NCBI GenBank assembly: GCA_964593885.1
Contig: CAZQKK010000002.1
Coordinates: forward strand, 11,997-75,996
Direction: 5' to 3'
DNA from: an uncultured Candidatus Saccharibacteria bacterium
Lineage (GTDB): Bacteria; Patescibacteriota; UBA1384; CAILIB01
DNA: 64,000 nt
Positions within the stretch are counted from its first letter, which is position 1, and every line of letters starts with the position of its first letter. Shown here piece by piece: positions 1,370 through 9,544 of this stretch. Below the pieces are notes generated by a model. It worked only from the letters and a program-made list of their open reading frames with translations, made no database searches and was not told where the DNA came from. The translations under genes were made by a program, and so were the position numbers.

Positions 1370-3013
1370 CTAGGCTTTGCCTACCTGGATAGTTCGACCG
1401 CCCATGCCCTCGGCAAAGTAGCTGTCGTGGGTAACGTAGATGATGGCGCCGGTGAATGCCTGGAGGGCTTCCTCAAGCTCTTCAATGGAGGGGAGATCGA
1501 GGTGGTTTGATGGCTCGTCCAAGATGAGGAGGTTGGGGTTGTTGGCAAGCATCTTTATCAGCTGCAGCCGTGCTTTCTGGCCACCTGAAAGCTGCCTTAC
1601 CGGAAGCTCTAGGTCATTCACGGGGTTGAAGAGGTAGGTTGCCAAAATGGAGCGAACCTCATCAATGGGGATGCTGATGCCGGCCTCGTGGTAGCACTGG
1701 CTCACCGCATCTCCCAGCTTCATGTCTAGGTAGGTACTACTTATCTCCTGCTCGTAGAAGCCAATCCTCAGCTTTGGGCTGGCTTTTATCTCGCCCTTCT
1801 TGAGGGTTTCAGGCTTCTTGCCAGCGGCAGCCGCCATGATGGTGCTAATGAGGGTAGACTTTCCGGCACCATTCCTGCCCCTAAACTGTAGCCTTTCGCC
1901 ATGCTTGATGGTGAAGTTGATCCGCTCTACCAGGTGGTGGGTGTAGCCCACGGCCACATCCTCAAGTTCCAAGAGCTGGAAGACGTGCGAGTCTGGCTTG
2001 GCCACCCGCACGGTGATGCCGCGCGCTTTGTACTTGTCATAGGATTCGGTTACCGTATCTGACAAACTCTCAACGGTGTCCTTATCAATCCAGAATGATG
2101 GCTTGGTGAGCGAGTCTTTCAGAGCGTCATGCTCTCCCTTCAGGCGTTCGTAGAGAATTTTGGGGCGATTATCGCTGGCGCCTCCCATCCGAGCCTTAGC
2201 CGTATTCATCTGGGTCTTCAGCACCTTCAGGCGCTTGAGGGTAGATTCGTACTGGCTAATCTGAGTTACGGTACTCGTACCGTTCTGCTTGATGTAGGAA
2301 TCGTAGTTTCCCGAGTACATGAAGAGCTGCTTGTCTCGCAGTTCCAGGACGCTGTCTACCTCACGCAGGACATCTCTGTCGTGGCTGATGATGAGGGCGG
2401 CGGTGTTGAGCTTCTTGAGCCACGAGAGGAACTGCGCCTTGCCGTGGTAGTCAAGGTGGTTGGTAGGCTCGTCAAGGAGGAGGAGGTCTGCCTGAGAGAA
2501 GCTAATCTTTACTAGCTCAACAAAGCGCTTCTGGCCACCGGAGAGGCTTCCCATGGGGCGATAGGCGGCGTCCAAGTCAATCTCAAATCCTTCAAGCATC
2601 TGGACGATTTCTTCCTCTACGGTGTAGTAGTTCCGGTCTGTGAAGGTTTGGAGCGCCTCGGTGAAGGTGTGGATTTTATCGAGGTCATCTCCCATCTGAT
2701 CCGGGTAGGTGTCCAGGACGTGCTTGAGGGTGTAGTAGTCGGGGATGTAGTCCAGGATGTAGTTGACGGGGGTGGTGGTGTCTACGTCGTGGTGCTCCTG
2801 GGCGGTGGCCACAATCCTCAGGCTCTTGGGGGTATCGATGGTGCCTACGTAGTCTGTATCGTCTCCCGTGAGGAGGTGGAAGAGGGTAGACTTGCCGGCG
2901 CCGTTCCGGCCGATGAGGGCAGTTTTCCGGTTTTCCTGCAGCATGAAGCTAGCTTCCTTGAGGAGAAGCTTTGAGCCCATGTACTTTTCGGAGATGGTGG
3001 CGGAGAGGAGCAT
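1370..3013 (-). CDS. ABC-F family ATPase (two ABC domains, no TM domain)
   Basis: Two Walker A motifs (GRNGAGKST twice), two LSGGQK signature motifs and two hhhhDEPTNHLD Walker B motifs. Length 547 aa. Confidence 0.9.
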   Translation of the reverse strand: MLLSATISEKYMGSKLLLKEASFMLQENRKTALIGRNGAGKSTLFHLLTGDDTDYVGTIDTPKSLRIVATAQEHHDVDTTTPVNYILDYIPDYYTLKHVLDTYPDQMGDDLDKIHTFTEALQTFTDRNYYTVEEEIVQMLEGFEIDLDAAYRPMGSLSGGQKRFVELVKISFSQADLLLLDEPTNHLDYHGKAQFLSWLKKLNTAALIISHDRDVLREVDSVLELRDKQLFMYSGNYDSYIKQNGTSTVTQISQYESTLKRLKVLKTQMNTAKARMGGASDNRPKILYERLKGEHDALKDSLTKPSFWIDKDTVESLSDTVTESYDKYKARGITVRVAKPDSHVFQLLELEDVAVGYTHHLVERINFTIKHGERLQFRGRNGAGKSTLISTIMAAAAGKKPETLKKGEIKASPKLRIGFYEQEISSTYLDMKLGDAVSQCYHEAGISIPIDEVRSILATYLFNPVNDLELPVRQLSGGQKARLQLIKMLANNPNLLILDEPSNHLDLPSIEELEEALQAFTGAIIYVTHDSYFAEGMGGRTIQVGKA

Positions 3014-3100
3014 TTGGCTACTATACCAGATTAGAAAGGGGTTGTCCTGTGTTGTTGGTGAAGTTTTTGCTAATCTATTCTTAACCGAACAAATTCTTAC

Positions 3101-3448
3101 ATGAAATCACTTCAAGATCTTCAGGATATGGTCGTTAAGCTTAGGGATGAGCGAGACTGGAAGCAATTCCATAACCCAAAGGACTTAGCCCTTACACTTA
3201 CCCTTGAAGCCACAGAAGTTTTGGAGCATTTTCAGTGGAAAACAAACGAAGAGTCTTTTGATCACATAAAAAAGAACAAACAAAAAGTTGCACACGAACT
3301 TGCTGACGTACTATATTCTGTTTTGCTCATGGCAAATGATTTTGATATTGATCTTGCAGAATCTTTCCTAGAGAAAATTGAAGAAATTTCAAAAAAGTAC
3401 CCTGTAGAGAAGTCAAGAGGAAATCATAAAAAATATACTGAGCTATGA
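3101..3448 (+). CDS. MazG-like nucleotide pyrophosphohydrolase (small all-alpha NTP-PPase)
   Basis: 115 aa with the EATEVLEHF and HELADVLY E-x-x-E/D helical motifs typical of the MazG/HisE superfamily. AT-rich relative to flanks. Its stop overlaps the next start (ATGA). Confidence 0.75.
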   Translation: MKSLQDLQDMVVKLRDERDWKQFHNPKDLALTLTLEATEVLEHFQWKTNEESFDHIKKNKQKVAHELADVLYSVLLMANDFDIDLAESFLEKIEEISKKYPVEKSRGNHKKYTEL

Positions 3449-5367
3449 TTGTTTATCAAGCTACAAAGCAATCTTTCCATCACGATATTCTCACTCACAG
3501 AATTGAGAAGATTGTTGCTAATGAGTTACTAAAAAAGACTGGAAAGCATGTGGGAGATGCAGAGGTGAGGTCATGGAAAGAATCGCTTGGCTACATGAGC
3601 AATGTGCTTTTGGATAACGATATTCCAAACGATGTTGGTATTGCCATTGAGTACCACATACCTCAAACCACCAAACGGATCGACTTTATTCTCACTGGTC
3701 AGAATGAGCATAATATTGACCATGCAATTCTTGTTGAGTTAAAGCAATGGTCGTCGGCAAAGCTGAGCGACCGAGATGGTGTGGTGTATACGTATGTTGG
3801 CGGAGGAGAGCGTGATATGAGCCACCCCTCATATCAGGCATGGTCATATGCTGCACTCCTTGAAGGATTTAATGAAACGGTTTACCAGGAAAACGTCCAG
3901 CTTAAGCCTTGTGCGTATTTGCACAACTATGAAGAGGATGAGGTTATCCGTAGTGATTTCTATCAAGAGTACCTAGATAAGGCACCGGCGTTTCTTGCTG
4001 GTGATGACGAGACAGAGAAGTTGAGAGATTTTATAAAAAGATACGTAAAGCGCGGGGATGTCTCGAATATTATGTATCGCATTGAGTGCGGTAGGATCCG
4101 CCCTTCAAAAGCTCTTGTGGATAGCCTTGTATCAATGCTTGATGGAAATGATGAGTTTGTCCTTGTTGATGATCAAAAGACAGTATTTGAGGAAGCAAGA
4201 TCACTAGTGCTTAATGCTTCAGATGATAATAAAAAAGTTCTCATTGTAGAGGGAGGGCCAGGAACAGGAAAAACACTTGTTGCTGTGAACCTTTTGGTAA
4301 AGGCCACAGCTGAAAACCTAGTTGCGCTTTATGTTACAAAAAACGCTGCGCCAAGAGCGGTCTATGAAAGCTTACTCACAAAGAGTCCCAGAAAAAGTGT
4401 ATACACATCTCTTTTCTCTGGCTCAGGTGCCTTTACCCAATCAAAGGAAAATGAGTTTGATGTCTTGATTGTTGATGAGGCGCACAGACTCAATGAAAAG
4501 TCTGGAATGTATAAGAACCTAGGTGAAAACCAGGTGAAAGAAATTATTACTGCTGCAAAATGTTCAATCTTCTTTATTGATGAAGATCAGCGTGTGACGT
4601 GGGGAGATATTGGAACAAAAGAAGAAATCATCAAATGGGCAAGGCAATGTGGAGCTGAGGTTGTCGAGAAAAACCTTTCATCACAGTTTAGGTGTAATGG
4701 TTCTGATGGTTACCTTGCATGGCTTGATGATGTTCTCCAAGTTAGAGAAACGGCAAACTACACTCTTGAAGAAGGTCAGTATGATTTTCAAGTTTTTTCA
4801 GACCCAAACGAACTTCGTAGAGCGATTCAACTTAATAATGTTGATAGAAATAAATCTCGTTTAGTTGCTGGCTACTGTTGGGAATGGGCAACTAAGTCTG
4901 GAAAAGCTGAATATGATGTCGTGTTGCCTGAGTATGATTTCAAAATGAAATGGAACCTTGCCAGTGACGGTAGTCTCTGGATAGTAGGAAAGAATTCAGT
5001 TAATGAAGTTGGCTGCATTCATACCTGCCAAGGTCTTGAGTTAGATTATGTAGGGGTGATTATTGGCGATGACTTTGTTGTGAGAGATGGTGAGGTTGTC
5101 ACAAATCCATCGGCTAGAGCACGTAGCGATAAATCACTTTCTGGATATGTGAAGGCCTCAAAGGATAGCCCAGAAGAATCATCTCAAAAAGCTGATCTTA
5201 TTATTAAGAATACCTACCGCACGCTCATGACGCGTGGGATGAAGGGTTGCTACGTTTACTGCACTGATAAAGAAACTGAAGATTACTTTAGAGAACGTCT
5301 CACACAGGTAGCTCATCTTTCTGGAAGCGAGATTGAAGGATTTGAAGATGAATTGGAGATTGCATAA
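3445..5367 (+). CDS. DUF2075 / Schlafen-group-3-like protein: N-terminal PD-(D/E)xK-like nuclease motif fused to SF1-type helicase ATPase
   Basis: N-terminus has IEYHIP...KRIDFIL...ILVELKQW (an E...D...ELK restriction-endonuclease-like signature). Walker A is GGPGTGKT. Walker B/DEAH-like is LIVDEAHRL. Motif VI-like is CIHTCQGLELDYVGVII. 640 aa, low GC. Confidence 0.8.
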   Translation: MIVYQATKQSFHHDILTHRIEKIVANELLKKTGKHVGDAEVRSWKESLGYMSNVLLDNDIPNDVGIAIEYHIPQTTKRIDFILTGQNEHNIDHAILVELKQWSSAKLSDRDGVVYTYVGGGERDMSHPSYQAWSYAALLEGFNETVYQENVQLKPCAYLHNYEEDEVIRSDFYQEYLDKAPAFLAGDDETEKLRDFIKRYVKRGDVSNIMYRIECGRIRPSKALVDSLVSMLDGNDEFVLVDDQKTVFEEARSLVLNASDDNKKVLIVEGGPGTGKTLVAVNLLVKATAENLVALYVTKNAAPRAVYESLLTKSPRKSVYTSLFSGSGAFTQSKENEFDVLIVDEAHRLNEKSGMYKNLGENQVKEIITAAKCSIFFIDEDQRVTWGDIGTKEEIIKWARQCGAEVVEKNLSSQFRCNGSDGYLAWLDDVLQVRETANYTLEEGQYDFQVFSDPNELRRAIQLNNVDRNKSRLVAGYCWEWATKSGKAEYDVVLPEYDFKMKWNLASDGSLWIVGKNSVNEVGCIHTCQGLELDYVGVIIGDDFVVRDGEVVTNPSARARSDKSLSGYVKASKDSPEESSQKADLIIKNTYRTLMTRGMKGCYVYCTDKETEDYFRERLTQVAHLSGSEIEGFEDELEIA

Positions 5368-5369
5368 CA

Positions 5370-5723
5370 ATGAATGCGAAACCATTACTCATAGCTGGTA
5401 GCGTCTCCCTTCTATCTGTAGCAGCTTTTGCCGCAGGTATGGAATCTCCAGAGGTTGCAGAAAGGTTGGGTAGTTCTCCGCAGATTACTTCAACAATTCC
5501 AGCTACTAACACACCAAAAGCGACTTCTGCTCCAACGCCTAAACCCACTGAGAGTAGCAAAGCTACTACATCAAATTGTGATTCGAACTACAGTCCCTGT
5601 ATTCCTAAGGTGAGTTATGACCTTGATTGTGGGGATATTGGAAAATTTGTGTACGTTATTGGTGTTGATGTACATGGATTTGACAGAGATGGGGATGGAG
5701 AAGGATGTGAGAGCTACAAATGA
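5370..5723 (+). CDS. secreted Excalibur (extracellular calcium-binding) domain protein
   Basis: N-terminal signal peptide, a Thr/Pro/Ser-rich linker, and a C-terminal DCGDIG...DRDGDGEGCE motif matching the Excalibur DxDxDGxxCE signature. Confidence 0.75.
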   Translation: MNAKPLLIAGSVSLLSVAAFAAGMESPEVAERLGSSPQITSTIPATNTPKATSAPTPKPTESSKATTSNCDSNYSPCIPKVSYDLDCGDIGKFVYVIGVDVHGFDRDGDGEGCESYK

Positions 5724-6049
5724 AATCCTTAAAATTCCAACCTCATCTAGCGCAGATGATTCGAGAGGGCAGAAAGACAACGACGTGGAGGCTCTTTGAT
5801 GACAAGGATCTCCAAGTTGGTGATGAGATTGAGTTGGTAGAAAAGGGTCAGAATGCGCCCTTCGCCCACACAACAATTACAAAGATGGTCTATAAGACAC
5901 TGGGCTCATTGCAAGATGAGGATTGGGTTGGGCATGAGAAATTTGCCTCAGAAGAAGAAATGTACGCAACATACCAAAATTACTACGGACCAAGTGTTGG
6001 TCCGGATATTGAAGTAAAGATTATCTGGTTTGGAACTATTGATTTGTGA
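5720..6049 (+). CDS. ASCH domain (PUA-like fold) protein
   Basis: 109 aa. The N-terminus KFQPHLAQMIREGRKTTTWRLFDD with a conserved GxKTxExR-type core is typical of ASCH. Start overlaps the previous stop (ATGA). Confidence 0.7.
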   Translation: MKSLKFQPHLAQMIREGRKTTTWRLFDDKDLQVGDEIELVEKGQNAPFAHTTITKMVYKTLGSLQDEDWVGHEKFASEEEMYATYQNYYGPSVGPDIEVKIIWFGTIDL

Positions 6050-6093
6050 GCAAGTCACTCAAGATTTTGCTACACTACCCATAACAACCCGTA

Positions 6094-6206
6094 ACCATCA
6101 AGAGAGGTAGTCAGGGCTCCAGAGCCCGCCAAAAGCTACCCAGCAACTGAGAACCGTCGTGTTCCGCAGTGCTAGAATCTGGTCCCGCCATGGGAAGATG
6201 TGGCCT
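6094..6206 (+). promoter_or_regulatory. SAM-I (S-box) riboswitch aptamer in the metK leader
   Basis: Contains AUCAAGAGAGG, then GGGCUCCAGAGCCCGCCAAAAGCUACCCAGCAACU, then CAGUGCUAGAAUCUGG. These closely match the conserved S-box core AUCAAGAGAGG...GGGACUGGCCCGAUGAAGCC...CAGCAACC...GGUGCUAAAUCCAGC. A GC-rich segment plus a T6 tract follows at 6255-6268, immediately before the metK ATG. Confidence 0.7.
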
Positions 6207-6270
6207 CGCGCAAACTAGAGCAACGGGCAAACACAGCGTACCTTGTGGGAAGAAAGGCGCGCTTTTTTGT

Positions 6271-7386
6271 ATGTCGCACACGAAAGTCTTTACCTCGGAA
6301 TCGGTCTGTTCCGGGCACCCTGACAAAATTTGTGATCAGGTGAGTGATGCTATCCTCGATGCAATTATCGCCCAAGATCCCTATGCAAGAGTGGCGGTGG
6401 AAACGGTGGTGGGGAAGAACCTCGTGGTGCTCGTGGGCGAGGTTACCGCAACCGCAACCGTAGACTACGAGGCAATTGCTCGCAGCGAGATACAGCGGCT
6501 TGGCTACACAGATCCGGCCCTTGGATTTTCGCACCAATCACCTATCACCGTTGCCATCCACTCGCAGTCTCCCGAGATTGCCAAAGGGGTTTCCAAGAAG
6601 GTGAAGGGGGCGGGAGACCAGGGGATGATGTTTGGCTACGCCTGCAACGAAACGCCAGAGCTGATGCCGTTCCCCATTAGCATCGCTCATGCGCTAACTA
6701 GAGCCATAGATGGGGTACGAGAGGACAAAACGATGCCGTACCTTCGCCCCGATGGGAAGAGTCAGGTAACCGTCTCGTACCATGATGGCAAGCCAGTTGG
6801 CGTTACCAAGGTTGTCTTGGCGGTACCTCACCACCCAGACACTACCCTCAAGCAGGTGGAGGCAGACCTCCTCAATCACGTGCTTACCCCGGTGCTTACC
6901 CGCTACGGCTTTGACGCAAAGGGCGTGAAACTCACGGTAAACGGCACCGGAGTGTGGCACCACGGCGGGCCAGCCTCGGATGCGGGGCTCACCGGAAGGA
7001 AGATTGTGGTTGACGGCTACGGAGGCTACGCCCGGGTGGGTGGGGGAGCCTTCAGCGGCAAAGACCCCTCAAAAGTAGACCGGTCCGGAGCCTACGCCGC
7101 TAGGTACATCGCCAAGAACATTGTGGCGGCGGGCCTGGCTACCCGTGCCGAGGTGGCGCTGGCGTACTGCATTGGGAAGCCTCAGCCGGTGATGAAAAAC
7201 GTGGAAACATTTGGGACCGCGGTTGCCTCGGATGCGGAGATTGCTGCGTTTGTGGAGGGACTCTTGGATTGCTCGGTGGAGGGGATTATCACCGGCCTGG
7301 ATTTGCGGAAACCGGTATTCCACCAGACTGCCGCCTACGGGCACTTTGGGCGGGAGGGGGTGAGTTGGGAGAGAGTTGCTGCTTAA
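6271..7386 (+). CDS. metK: S-adenosylmethionine synthetase
   Basis: MSHTKVFTSESVCSGHPDKICDQVSDAILDAI is the canonical bacterial MetK N-terminus. The hexapeptide GAGDQG and the C-terminal GGGAFSGKD P-loop are present. The tracked ORF start at 6169 lies inside the riboswitch, so the ATG at 6271 is preferred. Confidence 0.92.
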   Translation: MSHTKVFTSESVCSGHPDKICDQVSDAILDAIIAQDPYARVAVETVVGKNLVVLVGEVTATATVDYEAIARSEIQRLGYTDPALGFSHQSPITVAIHSQSPEIAKGVSKKVKGAGDQGMMFGYACNETPELMPFPISIAHALTRAIDGVREDKTMPYLRPDGKSQVTVSYHDGKPVGVTKVVLAVPHHPDTTLKQVEADLLNHVLTPVLTRYGFDAKGVKLTVNGTGVWHHGGPASDAGLTGRKIVVDGYGGYARVGGGAFSGKDPSKVDRSGAYAARYIAKNIVAAGLATRAEVALAYCIGKPQPVMKNVETFGTAVASDAEIAAFVEGLLDCSVEGIITGLDLRKPVFHQTAAYGHFGREGVSWERVAA

Positions 7387-8075: not shown

Positions 8076-8942
8076 ATGCCTAGTGAAACTATCGGAACAC
8101 ACAAGAAAACGTTTGCGGCGCATACCGCTCGTTTGCTTGCAAGTGAACCCTTCTCCACCGGAGTTGGGTCCCTGCTCATAGTACTTCCTTCCATCATCTT
8201 ACTAAGCCAGCGCTGTGCGCAGTGCCGAACAGCAAGTGTGGTGCAGGGACTGGTACTTCCTCTGGTGGGAATTGCATTTGGCTTGCTCATGCTTGCCAGT
8301 GCAGTTGCGCCAAAAGTGAGGTTGGTAATCTCGGTTGCAAATGCTTGTCTCGTACTAGCGGGCCTCATAAGCCCACTTGTGCTTGGCACCTTGCTCCTTG
8401 GGTACCACCCGTGCACGTACTGTATCATCGTCTGGTTTGGGGTTATCGCGCTTTTTGCGGGGATGCCTCTGGACGAAAGTCGTGCTAGCAAGCTGAGGTT
8501 GGTTTGGACCTGCTGCGCGGTTCTCACGCTCATTGTGTGGGGAGTGCCAGCTACTAACCTTGAGGCTAAGCGCCTCCTGATCGCGGCGGGACTCAGTACC
8601 ACCGCCACAGAGAACGGACCAACGGTTGGAAGTGTCGCTCCAATGGAGCCATCACTTCCTAGTACAGTAACGGTTGTCTTCTGGACGCAGTGCCCATGTC
8701 CACTGCCCCAGCTGCAAGAAGCGCTCAGAGCGCTCAACCAAAAAGGTGTCGTGCCGGTAATCATTACTACCGTGCGCGTTCCCGAAATGAAGGCTTGGGC
8801 TCCCCGGAGCTCGGTACTCATAGTTGATGACAGCGTCTTCCAGCAATGGGGGGTGGATCGTCACCAGACACACGTGGTGGTTAGGATTGAGGGTGGCATT
8901 GTCGTCACCAGCAACCCTGCCAGCCAGGTCAAAAGTAAATGA
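8076..8942 (+). CDS. VKOR/DsbB-like polytopic membrane thiol oxidoreductase with C-terminal thioredoxin-like soluble domain
   Basis: Four to five TM helices. A loop Cys pair CAQC sits after TM1 and a CTYC sits at the start of a TM helix, matching the VKOR active-site arrangement. The C-terminal domain carries a FWTQCPCP Cys motif. The exact start is uncertain. Confidence 0.55.
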   Translation: MPSETIGTHKKTFAAHTARLLASEPFSTGVGSLLIVLPSIILLSQRCAQCRTASVVQGLVLPLVGIAFGLLMLASAVAPKVRLVISVANACLVLAGLISPLVLGTLLLGYHPCTYCIIVWFGVIALFAGMPLDESRASKLRLVWTCCAVLTLIVWGVPATNLEAKRLLIAAGLSTTATENGPTVGSVAPMEPSLPSTVTVVFWTQCPCPLPQLQEALRALNQKGVVPVIITTVRVPEMKAWAPRSSVLIVDDSVFQQWGVDRHQTHVVVRIEGGIVVTSNPASQVKSK

Positions 8943-9544
8943 AACGGTTACCATACCTGAGAACTAGGTTGGGATTCACGATGGTTGAGGTCATCGTGGT
9001 AATTCTGATCATCGCCGTTCTCGCTGCTATCATCTTTCCTGTTGTCAGTTCCACTAGGGAACAGGCACGGAAAACAGACACCTCAGCAAGGCTCCACCAG
9101 GTTGCACAGGCCATTTCACTCTACCAAGATGAAAATGACCAGAGCTTGCCACCTCGGTTGAGTAGCCTGTCCTTGAAGCCTGAAATGCTTCGTTGCTCCA
9201 AGAGTGGGTATACGTTCTACTACCCGTTGAACTACTCCTTCCTCCAGCGCTACGGCAATCGCAAGGAAATTGCTCCCGAGTTTGAGCCAAGTCAGAACGC
9301 TGCTGTTAAGGCGATGTTCTGGCACACCTTCAACTGTGGGATGGCAAACAAGAACTGTGATGTCAAAACGCACGTGGTGGATGGGGTAAATTACACGTAC
9401 ACCATTCCACGCATGACGGAAGATACACCAAGTACCTACAAGGTGCTCGGCGTGAGGCTGGATGGGAGCGTTGGCGAATTCCCGGTCCTCGAAGACTGGG
9501 AGAAAAACCACCTTGAAGAGGGTGGCGTAGGGAAAGACAAATGA
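8939..9544 (+). CDS. type IV pilin-like protein (prepilin N-terminal methylation/cleavage motif)
   Basis: A basic leader is followed by G|FTMVEVIVVILIIAVLAAIIFPV: a class III signal peptide with Glu at +5 and a hydrophobic helix. The globular domain has 4 Cys. Start overlaps the previous stop. Confidence 0.8.
   Translation: MKRLPYLRTRLGFTMVEVIVVILIIAVLAAIIFPVVSSTREQARKTDTSARLHQVAQAISLYQDENDQSLPPRLSSLSLKPEMLRCSKSGYTFYYPLNYSFLQRYGNRKEIAPEFEPSQNAAVKAMFWHTFNCGMANKNCDVKTHVVDGVNYTYTIPRMTEDTPSTYKVLGVRLDGSVGEFPVLEDWEKNHLEEGGVGKDK

Follow-up and report, generated by a model that had tools for sequence, protein, structure and literature searches.

A conserved pyrophosphatase and nuclease-helicase gene pair in an acquired island of a candidate-phyla-radiation genome suggests a two-gene variant of the Nhi anti-phage enzyme

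Nuclease-helicases with an N-terminal PD-(D/E)xK domain and a C-terminal SF1B helicase overlapping DUF2075/PF09848 include Nhi of Staphylococcus epidermidis (SERP2475; Bari et al. 2022) and the Nhi-like protein of Millman et al. (2022), and proteins of this architecture were found to protect against phage as single genes (10.1101/776245; 10.1101/2022.05.11.491447). The PF09848 family has been treated as an Abi pfam (PMC10121019). AbiO, an abortive-infection protein of Lactococcus, likewise joins a REase-like N-terminal domain to a Schlafen-type SF1B helicase (PMC13064643), and both AbiO and one Nhi homologue are toxic on overexpression (10.1101/776245; PMC13064643). Related by their helicase are (i) PDC-S41, a PADLOC candidate of about 650 aa with DUF2075, listed as a single-gene candidate; and (ii) the eukaryotic group III Schlafens (SLFN11, SLFN5, SLFN13, and SLFN14), in which a helicase of the same Pfam family accompanies a Schlafen-core N-terminal RNase domain. 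Gabija (GajA nuclease and GajB helicase) and Hachiman (HamA and HamB) also combine nuclease with helicase, though with other folds (OLD/TOPRIM, UvrD, DUF1837, SF2) and on separate proteins. Here, we describe a locus in a 64-kb stretch of DNA from a Saccharimonadia-like candidate-phyla-radiation (CPR) genome (the window) that shares the Nhi architecture and differs from these single-gene systems in that a gene for a DCTPP1-like enzyme lies immediately upstream. We interpret the locus, with a probability of roughly 60%, as an acquired island whose conserved two-gene operon core is an anti-phage or anti-mobile-element (MGE) module and whose other two genes are passengers. The defence function is proposed by analogy, from homologue precedent and genomic context, and the substrates and any physical complex of the pair are likewise presumptive.

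The island comprises four forward-strand ORFs (3101-3448, 3445-5367, 5370-5723, and 5720-6049), joined by ATGA overlaps at 3445 and 5720 and separated once by a 2-nt gap at 5368-5369, coordinates and junctions that agree with the original prediction. The AT-richness noticed at that time was borne out by calculation, as the GC content of 3101-6049 was 0.413 compared with 0.526 for the window, a deviation of about 4.8 SD among same-size windows (SD 0.024). This region is the GC minimum of the window and the only place where a 1-kb stretch falls below 0.47; the segment 3241-3300, first put at about 33% GC, was computed at 31.7%. Codon usage deviates in the same manner, with GC3 values of 0.33, 0.36, 0.29, and 0.45 for the four genes in order, compared with 0.74 and 0.65 for the flanking ABC-F and metK genes and a background of 0.592 ± 0.056 (56 ORFs). 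The flanks belong to the native host backbone on the left, where the ABC-F ATPase gene (1370-3013, reverse strand; Pfam ABC_tran) is 82% identical in nucleotides and 88% in amino acids to its orthologue in a relative, L088 (GCA_965609665.1), and to a metK region on the right (6090-7386, forward strand) that is syntenic with the same relative at 75% nucleotide identity. The right flank consists of a leader (6090-6244) and the metK gene, which encodes the S-AdoMet synthetase N, M, and C domains (Pfam) and probably starts at about 6271. The leader is SAM-I/IV riboswitch-like (RF01725, 29 bits, below the gathering threshold of 41.1; E = 0.006), and Rfam at gathering thresholds gave no match anywhere in the window. 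In L088, metK adjoins ABC-F with 414 bp between them and no island, and this empty site has 152 bp where the window has 3048 bp. As the two flanking genes adjoin each other in this close relative, the island is an insertion; and because its composition and codon bias deviate and the L088 site is empty, the approximately 3-kb island is horizontally acquired, as had been proposed, and sits in the divergent ABC-F/metK intergenic region.

The borders of the island were examined for direct repeats. A 25-nt imperfect repeat, AAGTTTTTGCTAATCTATTCTTAAC in its left copy (3061-3085), recurs at 6061-6085 with 19 of 25 positions identical and a spacing of exactly 3000 bp. The L088 site holds a single copy, and homology to L088 resumes at the right copy, the blastn alignment starting at window position 6062. 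This candidate flanking repeat lies exactly at both junctions; chance repeats of similar quality are common in the region, and the rough probability that one of them would fall at both junctions is about 0.01. No integrase or transposase was found among the four island ORFs and no tRNA in the 64-kb window. A promoter/terminator scan performed no better on this DNA than on shuffled sequence. An exact-sequence contig look-up with the DUF2075 and ABC-F proteins returned no match, and the same with a neighbouring 141-aa protein matched a 2-kb Logan contig that ends short of the island.

The second and largest ORF encodes a 640-aa protein in which a nuclease and an SF1 helicase had been predicted to reside together. 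Its C-terminal part (4231-5367), an SF1B helicase domain of the DUF2075/Schlafen group-3 type followed by a low-confidence acidic tail, matched PF09848 (DUF2075, now SLFN-g3_helicase) at 358 bits (E = 7e-107), with invariant Walker A and B motifs and structural matches to RecD2, Dda, Upf1, and Dna2, and with SLFN11 among the top. The N-terminal part (residues 1-262; 3445-4230) is a predicted NERD-like domain of restriction-endonuclease fold. The PD-(D/E)xK-like motif first reported there did not reach significance by sequence search, which gave only sub-threshold NERD matches (E = 0.02); the assignment is nonetheless retained, since the invariant residues D80 and E98-x-K100 and the REase fold support these weak matches. 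On residue conservation and fold, the protein is thus a putative PD-(D/E)xK nuclease and SF1B Schlafen-type helicase in a single polypeptide.

The first ORF (3101-3448) encodes a MazG-like protein of 115 aa, an all-alpha NTP pyrophosphatase of the DCTPP1/RS21-C6 type, as judged by a match to PF12643 (62.7 bits, cutoff 27; E = 4e-17) and by PDB matches to 4qgp (3e-18) and to mouse and human DCTPP1, mammalian dCTP pyrophosphatase 1 (5e-18). With the PF09848 match and the PF04266 match of the fourth ORF (E = 1e-9), this upholds the MazG-like, DUF2075, and ASCH domain calls. Residues E36, E39, E66, D69, W20, and W46 were found to be invariant among 78 partner proteins and to align with the identical residues E63, E66, E95, D98, W47, and W73 of DCTPP1; thus, the ExxE...ExxD metal-binding tetrad is intact, and the pocket residues W20, W46, and H24 are conserved. 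The likeness to DCTPP1 includes the tetrad, both pocket tryptophans, and a C-terminal KY..L tail; it differs in that identity reaches only about 32 to 35% at most and in that the gene shares an operon with a nuclease-helicase, a setting in which DCTPP1 has not been described. Gene 1 is therefore predicted to encode an active nucleoside-triphosphate pyrophosphatase of this type, and the type suggests (modified) dCTP-type substrates at least as much as bulk nucleotide depletion. Across both proteins, the catalytic residues of all three predicted activities (pyrophosphatase, nuclease, and helicase) are intact.

The pair was compared with known systems using the HMMs of PADLOC-DB v2.0.0 (2023), searched model by model. 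The Nhi model matched the nuclease-helicase at only 50 bits, aligning residues 236-418 to profile positions 179-331 of 470, and similarity to it could not be detected in the nuclease domain; the AbiO match was likewise partial at 50 bits, and partial coverage by the Nhi/AbiO models was also found in six other clade members. For PDC-S41, model PDLC05014 gave the window protein 62 bits in three fragments versus 954 bits over positions 1-652 for a true member (L001), which indicates that the window protein belongs to a family paralogous to PDC-S41. That true member stands in tandem with the pair, and in a haloarchaeal homologue the PDC-S41 match reaches into the N-terminal domain. Membership in PDC-S41, Nhi, and AbiO was rejected on score and coverage. 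No PADLOC model hit the MazG partner, no Schlafen-core RNase domain was found in the window protein, and no homology to Gabija or Hachiman was detected beyond the P-loop. Neither AbiO nor Nhi, each a single gene, is described with a MazG partner, whereas the clade examined here has one that is conserved and co-diverging. As no PADLOC model matches in full and no description of a MazG-like/DUF2075 pair was found in the open-access literature, the earlier statement that the combination is not a named system holds. The shared domain order, the patchy distribution suggestive of horizontal transfer, the plasmid copies, and the defence-gene neighbours are as for Nhi, and the pair resembles a two-gene variant of this enzyme.

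Recurrence of the MazG-DUF2075 pairing, which the original prediction had left to a gene-neighbourhood search, was found in 78 of 80 related loci from CPR bacteria, Bacteroidota, Beta/Gammaproteobacteria, Nitrospira, and Desulfatiglandales; in 72 the MazG-like gene lies directly upstream of the DUF2075 gene, with gaps mostly of -4 to +28 nt. The two genes co-diverge (Mantel r = 0.64, reached by 0 of 2000 permutations). The clade has at least 586 members among 185,579 species representatives, and its distribution across phyla is patchy at 55-64% identity, with most copies chromosomal and others on plasmids and megaplasmids. More distant pairs include a haloarchaeal plasmid (47% identity), a Priestia plasmid where the pair lies beside a Type I R-M system (39%), and L092 (31%). 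In Bacillus, 74 records had the MazG-like gene and 69 a DUF2075 match (B. cereus-group megaplasmids), with adjacency taken from coordinates in about two dozen records and one locus (L177) annotated; these megaplasmids keep the MazG partner, while the nuclease appears GIY-YIG-like instead. A few close relatives (on a Methanosphaera plasmid, a Hymenobacter plasmid, and L067) have no MazG gene, and in L033 it was not seen within about 600 bp upstream; the partner is therefore not strictly essential. These exceptions, together with the ability of Nhi and Millman's Nhi-like protein to act alone (10.1101/776245; 10.1101/2022.05.11.491447), would agree with a self-sufficient nuclease-helicase beside which the MazG-like gene is an independent, house-cleaning hitch-hiker. 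We consider this unlikely, as the linkage holds in nearly all loci, mostly through overlapping or near-abutting stop and start codons, the genes co-diverge, and the partner is kept across 31-64% identity even where the nuclease module appears to have been swapped. The conservation of the partner gene argues that the clade normally works as a pair.

The other two island genes behave differently. ORF3 (5370-5723, 117 aa) has a signal/anchor-like N-terminus, a Thr/Pro/Ser-rich linker, and a Cys-rich module of about 48 aa that resembles the calcium-binding Excalibur domain, and it is predicted to be extracytoplasmic. The Excalibur call made for it was upheld in part: the Pfam match is sub-threshold (PF05901, 16 bits versus 22; 13 residues at profile positions 24-36) and precomputed annotations list Excalibur for 0 of 30 homologues, but the calcium loop D105-R-D-G-D-G-E-G-C113-E conforms to the DRDGDGxGCE motif and C70, C77, C87, and C113 are invariant in 12 aligned homologues. 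The 30 homologues have the four cysteines and the motif in common, and fusions to G5 or SNase domains occur among them. The fourth gene (5720-6049) encodes a stand-alone ASCH-domain protein of 109 aa (PF04266, 39.5 bits, cutoff 21.2); as an orthologue of YqfB (N4-acetylcytidine amidohydrolase) it was rejected (NF003443, 17 bits versus a cutoff of 93). A system in which all four proteins act together had been envisaged, and the genes are indeed co-directional, tightly packed, and similarly AT-rich, and ASCH, a PUA-like fold, could read modified bases. The neighbourhood data largely refute this reading, which we hold to be highly improbable: ORF3 and ASCH occur in 0 of the 80 loci related to the pair, 0 of 80 ASCH loci carry MazG, DUF2075, or ORF3, an ORF3 homologue that was inspected has unrelated surroundings, and ORF3 would reside outside the cytoplasm. 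Clustering the neighbours of the 80 pair loci gave no third conserved gene. The assertion that ASCH recurs in defence contexts also finds no support for this subfamily, since its homologues in 80 metagenome loci sit amid housekeeping genes with no conserved partner. ORF3 and ASCH are thus co-located passengers without a conserved link to the pair.

The defence-like setting suspected for the MazG and DUF2075 genes was recovered in other genomes. Restriction, HNH, Fic, or toxin genes are frequent nearby, and immediate neighbours include HNH (7), Type II REase (5), SoFic (4), PDC-S13 (4), Vsr, WYL, Panacea, and GmrSD; on the Hymenobacter plasmid the copy is surrounded by an R-M island, and the gene has a lower GC content than the sequence on either side in 43 of 75 loci. 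The island in this window is flanked by no further gene recognisable as defensive. Zeta toxin, Fic, and Panacea antitoxin genes near the pair in other loci, the copies on plasmids and megaplasmids, the toxicity of overexpressed AbiO and Nhi homologue (10.1101/776245; PMC13064643), and a coupled small-upstream/large-downstream layout like that of toxin-antitoxin operons could also indicate a plasmid-addiction-like module, in which the pyrophosphatase neutralises or regulates a toxic nuclease-helicase and mobile DNA is stabilised rather than phage primarily opposed. This we judge improbable, as most copies are chromosomal and the catalytic site of the small protein is wholly intact, unlike that expected of a binding antitoxin; addiction and defence by abortive infection can, however, coexist in one module.

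Mammalian DCTPP1 serves in house-cleaning, Dna2 is an example of an SF1B helicase-nuclease with a role in repair, and some homologues carry a LexA-like S24 domain, a domain linked to the SOS response. A module for DNA repair and nucleotide-pool sanitation, which removes damaged or modified dNTPs and processes lesions or stalled forks outside any phage conflict, would account for these features; it is very unlikely given the patchy cross-phylum spread at 55-64% identity, the atypical GC and plasmid carriage, the restriction, HNH, and Fic neighbours, and the absence of the pair from the closest relative of this genome. Some phages use dCTP pyrophosphatases in their hypermodification pathways (PMC12838424, PMC13326640), and the pair is present in one phage record (Microcystis phage Mwe-JY31) and on one IMG/VR contig. 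A counter-defence or hypermodification helper on the MGE or phage side, clearing canonical dCTP as in T4-like phages, was therefore considered. There is very little likelihood of this, as a close copy occurs in only 1 of 50,697 phage records and no modification enzymes were found alongside the pair in the neighbour analysis of related loci. In IMG/VR, a single-sequence scan found no relative and a profile scan only relatives of up to 31% identity, and a phage origin of the pair was set aside on this ground.

If the pair is an anti-phage or anti-MGE module, the helicase would load on replication or recombination intermediates of foreign DNA, which the fused nuclease would then cut, as shown for Nhi. 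The pyrophosphatase, whose translation is coupled to that of its partner, may (i) remove dCTP/dUTP-type precursors, non-canonical or modified, from which phages make restriction-resistant DNA; (ii) alternatively, lower the local dNTP supply; or (iii) also gate the nuclease-helicase. For the last, Gabija may offer an analogy, its nuclease being gated by nucleotide levels (table in PMC11232893). A bolder and rather doubtful extension would be an undescribed two-component immune system of bacteria and archaea, in which a DCTPP1-type enzyme destroys or senses pyrimidine dNTPs, modified or canonical, on which phages depend, as obligate partner of a Schlafen-type nuclease-helicase with an interchangeable nuclease (PD-(D/E)xK or GIY-YIG), and in which some members are wired to RecA/SOS through the LexA-like S24 domain. 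Single-gene phage defence is an accepted role of nuclease-helicases of the Nhi/AbiO/DUF2075 type, and a large clade that keeps a catalytically intact DCTPP1-like enzyme immediately upstream provides a testable hypothesis linking dNTP-pool chemistry, possibly that of hypermodified phage nucleotides, to nuclease-helicase immunity. Human homologues exist for each of the two components (DCTPP1 and the SLFN11-type helicase), and a two-component immune role, if true, would show that surveillance of the nucleotide pool is coupled to Schlafen-like restriction already in prokaryotes. The window itself illustrates clearly the insertion of a defence-type cassette between two housekeeping genes of a CPR genome. 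CPR hosts and their phages are unculturable; members of the pair were also found in culturable hosts, including Pseudomonas (P. palleroniana, L074), Luteimonas, Variovorax, and Bacillus thuringiensis (megaplasmid, L177).

The four ORFs at 3101-6049, between ABC-F (left, − strand) and metK (right), were examined as a proposed AT-rich, horizontally acquired anti-phage cassette. ORF coordinates matched the original prediction, with all four genes on the + strand and joined by ATGA stop/start overlaps at 3445 and 5720 and by a 2-nt gap at 5368-5369. Pfam supported the assigned domains of three genes: (i) the MazG-like gene (3101-3448; 115 aa; PF12643, E = 4e-17); (ii) the DUF2075 gene (3445-5367; 640 aa; PF09848, presently named SLFN-g3_helicase, E = 7e-107); and (iii) the ASCH gene (5720-6049; 109 aa; PF04266, E = 1e-9). 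The exception was ORF3 (5370-5723; 117 aa), whose predicted Excalibur domain scored 16 bits vs a Pfam threshold of 22. The AT-richness was confirmed by composition: the island had a GC content of 0.413 vs 0.526 for the whole window, about 4.8 SD low among same-size windows (SD 0.024), and was the GC minimum of the window and its sole 1-kb stretch below 0.47. The GC3 values of the MazG-like, DUF2075, ORF3, and ASCH genes were 0.33, 0.36, 0.29, and 0.45, respectively, compared with 0.74 for ABC-F, 0.65 for metK, and 0.592 ± 0.056 for 56 background ORFs.

Horizontal acquisition was supported by this deviation together with an empty site in a relative (L088, GCA_965609665.1; ABC-F 88% identical), where metK and ABC-F are divergent neighbours 414 bp apart. 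By blastn, window positions 1371-3013 aligned with ABC-F of L088 at 82% nucleotide identity and positions 6062-7371 with its metK leader and gene at 75% identity; between these flanks, 152 bp of L088 were replaced by 3048 bp in the window. Homologues of the island proteins were detected neither in the examined regions of L088 and two further relatives nor elsewhere in the window. The ~3-kb block between ABC-F and metK is, then, an insertion. Each island junction has a copy of an imperfect 25-nt direct repeat, at 3061-3085 and at 6061-6085 (19 of 25 positions identical; the copies exactly 3000 bp apart), and L088 carries one copy. Chance repeats of similar quality are frequent in this region (p about 0.01 by rough estimate for one at both junctions), so the arrangement is suggestive of site-specific insertion. 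No integrase was found among the ORFs of the island, and neither tRNA genes nor Rfam families at gathering score were found in the 64-kb window. Because the closest named relatives of the flanking ABC-F protein are from Saccharimonadia/Patescibacteria, the host, judged from the relatives of this one protein, is probably a CPR bacterium of comparatively high GC content.

When one genome per GTDB species was scanned, the 640-aa protein had at least 586 relatives. The best 80, at 55-64% identity, span Patescibacteria, Bacteroidota, Beta-/Gammaproteobacteria, Zetaproteobacteria, Nitrospira, and Desulfatiglandales, a spread that is itself a sign of horizontal transfer. The suggestion that the MazG-like/DUF2075 pairing recurs elsewhere was borne out when the neighbourhoods of these 80 were compared: a MazG-like homologue was present at 78 loci and lay directly upstream on the same strand at 72, with an intergenic gap of −4 to +53 nt in 61 of the 63 loci where both genes were resolved by ORF calling. 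The distance matrices of the two proteins were correlated across the 72 adjacent pairs (Mantel r = 0.64; none of 2000 permutations as high), and thus the two genes are inherited and transferred as one unit; a MazG-like gene that is an independent hitch-hiker is less consistent with this co-divergence. Clustering of all neighbouring ORFs at the 80 loci revealed no third conserved gene, and homologues of ORF3 and ASCH were found at none of them.

ORF3 is nonetheless a real, conserved gene. Its protein has a hydrophobic N-terminus followed by a linker rich in Thr, Pro, and Ser and, at the C-terminus, a ~48-aa module in which four cysteines are invariant and the loop DRDGDGxGCE is present. This module, Excalibur-like at the motif level, is common to ~30 small proteins, some fused to G5 or SNase domains, and the context of one ORF3 homologue was unrelated to the pair. 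The ASCH protein has a bona fide ASCH domain but is not a YqfB orthologue. The 80 closest metagenomic ASCH loci (median GC 44%, housekeeping genes present) had no conserved neighbour and lacked the MazG-like, DUF2075, and ORF3 genes. The proposed four-gene combination was therefore not upheld, and a single system formed by all four genes is less consistent with these data. ORF3 and ASCH share the low GC of the island; they were probably brought in together with it or else came from donors of a similar kind. No functional tie of either to the pair was found.

The best solved relatives of the MazG-like protein were an archaeal pyrophosphatase (4qgp, 3e-18) and mammalian DCTPP1/RS21-C6 (5e-18). 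In the alignment, E36, E39, E66, and D69 correspond to the metal ligands E63, E66, E95, and D98 of DCTPP1, and W20, H24, and W46 to its pocket; a C-terminal K-Y-x-x-L tail is common to both. As these ligand, pocket, and tail residues are invariant or nearly so in 78 partners, the protein looks like an active DCTPP1-type enzyme and not a degenerate scaffold. The full-length AlphaFold model of the 640-aa protein was confident (pLDDT 85.4, pTM 0.82), with moderate confidence for the N-terminal domain; the C-terminal two-thirds match the SF1B helicases RecD2, SLFN11, IGHMBP2, Dna2, Dda, and Upf1. Invariant across 113 homologues were E69, D80, E98-L-K100, and Q101, along with Walker A (GGPGTGK, 270-276), Walker B (D344-E345), and several helicase motifs. 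By sequence, the N-terminal domain gave NERD matches in 10 of 34 members, all sub-threshold. When this domain was used as the query of an exhaustive HMMER search, 946 cluster representatives were found (E ≤ 1e-10), the matches beginning at or near the protein N-terminus save in obviously truncated entries, and the full-length proteins were of about 620-650 aa or about 790-810 aa. The longer form, 7 of the best 120 matches (~6%), has a C-terminal LexA/UmuD-like Peptidase_S24 domain; the fused homologues are P0002, P0006, P0016, P0038, P0054, P0105, and P0107, and the form is also found at loci L033 (612-3044) and L087 (2311-4683). A GxSM...K pattern consistent with a catalytic dyad is readable in these sequences, which hints that these proteins may be regulated through self-cleavage triggered by RecA/SOS and that ssDNA/RecA-type signals may matter in part of the family. 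At L087 the MazG-like gene is still upstream, and at L033 none was present in the ~600 bp examined upstream.

Culturable carriers of the pair include Pseudomonas palleroniana LMG 23076 (L074) and Luteimonas sp. R10 (L048). The pairing is also kept on a Halalkalicoccus plasmid (47% identity) and on a Priestia plasmid (39% identity), the latter adjoining Type I R-M genes. Some close relatives, in the DNA examined, showed no MazG-like gene: those on a Methanosphaera plasmid, one Hymenobacter plasmid copy, and the homologous locus L067. On B. cereus-group megaplasmids, a MazG-like gene (50% identical) is followed by a 560-aa DUF2075 protein with a helicase 31% identical. This arrangement is found on B. 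thuringiensis pBTKNU07-01 (L177, 4047-6206) and ~70 other such megaplasmids. In L177, the one annotated example and the basis of the assignment, the DUF2075 N-terminus is GIY-YIG-like at 21.9 bits, just below the Pfam cutoff of 22.6, with additional PADLOC PDC-S14 matches. This looks like a swap of nuclease module, GIY-YIG-like for PD-(D/E)xK, with the MazG-like partner kept. HNH and zeta-toxin genes are located upstream of the L177 pair. On a Streptomyces plasmid (L084, 2698-5776; ~29% identity), a DUF3883 protein precedes DUF2075 in place of MazG, matching the DUF3427-DUF3883/DUF2075 association known for modification-dependent restriction enzymes (PMC6765204).

Defence assignments were made with PADLOC-DB v2.0.0 HMMs, with neighbour matches taken at E ≤ 1e-10. 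The immediate outside neighbours of the pair were variable across the 80 loci and often matched defence or candidate-defence models (raw counts: HNH 7, Type II REase 5, SoFic 4, PDC-S13 4; also PDC-S04, PDC-S24, Vsr, WYL, and others), while Pfam identified HNH_2, Fic, Bro-N, Vsr, Panacea, WYL, and GmrSD. At 43 of 75 loci, the GC content of the DUF2075 gene fell below that of its flanks by more than 3 points. None of the PADLOC models matched the MazG partners, and no description of the pair was found in open-access full text. The protein architecture is the same as that of three known defence proteins: Nhi, which acts as a single gene by experiment, nicking and unwinding phage replication intermediates, with escape via phage SSB (10.1101/776245; PMC12904381); the Nhi-like protein of Millman (10.1101/2022.05.11.491447); and AbiO (PMC13064643). 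PF09848 is also in use as an 'Abi' marker (PMC10121019). Membership in Nhi or AbiO was rejected, as the PADLOC models cover only ~180 helicase residues at ~50 bits, as was membership in PDC-S41 (62 bits vs 954 for a true member). That true member is a paralogous DUF2075 gene in tandem right after the pair at L001 (7878-9848); a second, 34%-identical DUF2075 gene is likewise in tandem at L179 (8098-9987), on the Hymenobacter plasmid whose copy lacks MazG and is enclosed by an R-M island.

Overall, we consider it somewhat probable (about 0.6) that the island encodes a defence-type module of two genes and that this module is a new variation on the Nhi-like nuclease-helicase theme. If the pair works as Nhi does, foreign replication or recombination intermediates would be engaged by the helicase and cut by the fused nuclease. 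The DCTPP1-like partner might destroy the modified pyrimidine dNTPs by which phages evade nucleases, might deplete dCTP-type nucleotides, or might gate the nuclease-helicase in the way that nucleotide levels gate Gabija. An addiction module or a repair module would be less consistent with the data taken together. The dCTP-pyrophosphatase papers met in the literature search concern phage-side hypermodification pathways, and the pair occurs at 42% (MazG-like) and 31% (DUF2075) identity on an IMG/VR contig (L092, GVMAG-S-1041346-124, 4258-6485); a phage-side function for the pair is also less consistent with the data. When weighed against conservation, co-divergence, module swapping, and neighbourhood, all five alternatives fit worse than the defence-type module. 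The L092 contig is binned as a giant-virus MAG; bacterial DNA binned wrongly or a genuine acquisition by a virus could each account for this. Among 50,697 phage records, just one has a close copy of the pair (48% and 57% identity): Microcystis phage Mwe-JY31 (L085, PP438423.1, 4657-6863), a phage by record label, whose 22-kb record has every gene annotated as hypothetical.

Immediately right of the right repeat, the metK leader (6090-6244, +) matched the SAM-I/IV riboswitch model at 29 bits vs a gathering score of 41.1 (E = 0.006); it is also conserved in L088 and is possibly a SAM riboswitch of divergent, CPR type. Beyond metK, L088 has a zeta-toxin/AAA_33 gene and small ORFs (6691-7356), so the surroundings of metK may vary within this lineage. 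Further along the window, the ORF list includes one at 8939-9544 (+) with a type-IV-pilin-like prepilin N-terminus (MKRLPYLRTRLGFTMVEVIVVILIIAVLAAIIFPV...).
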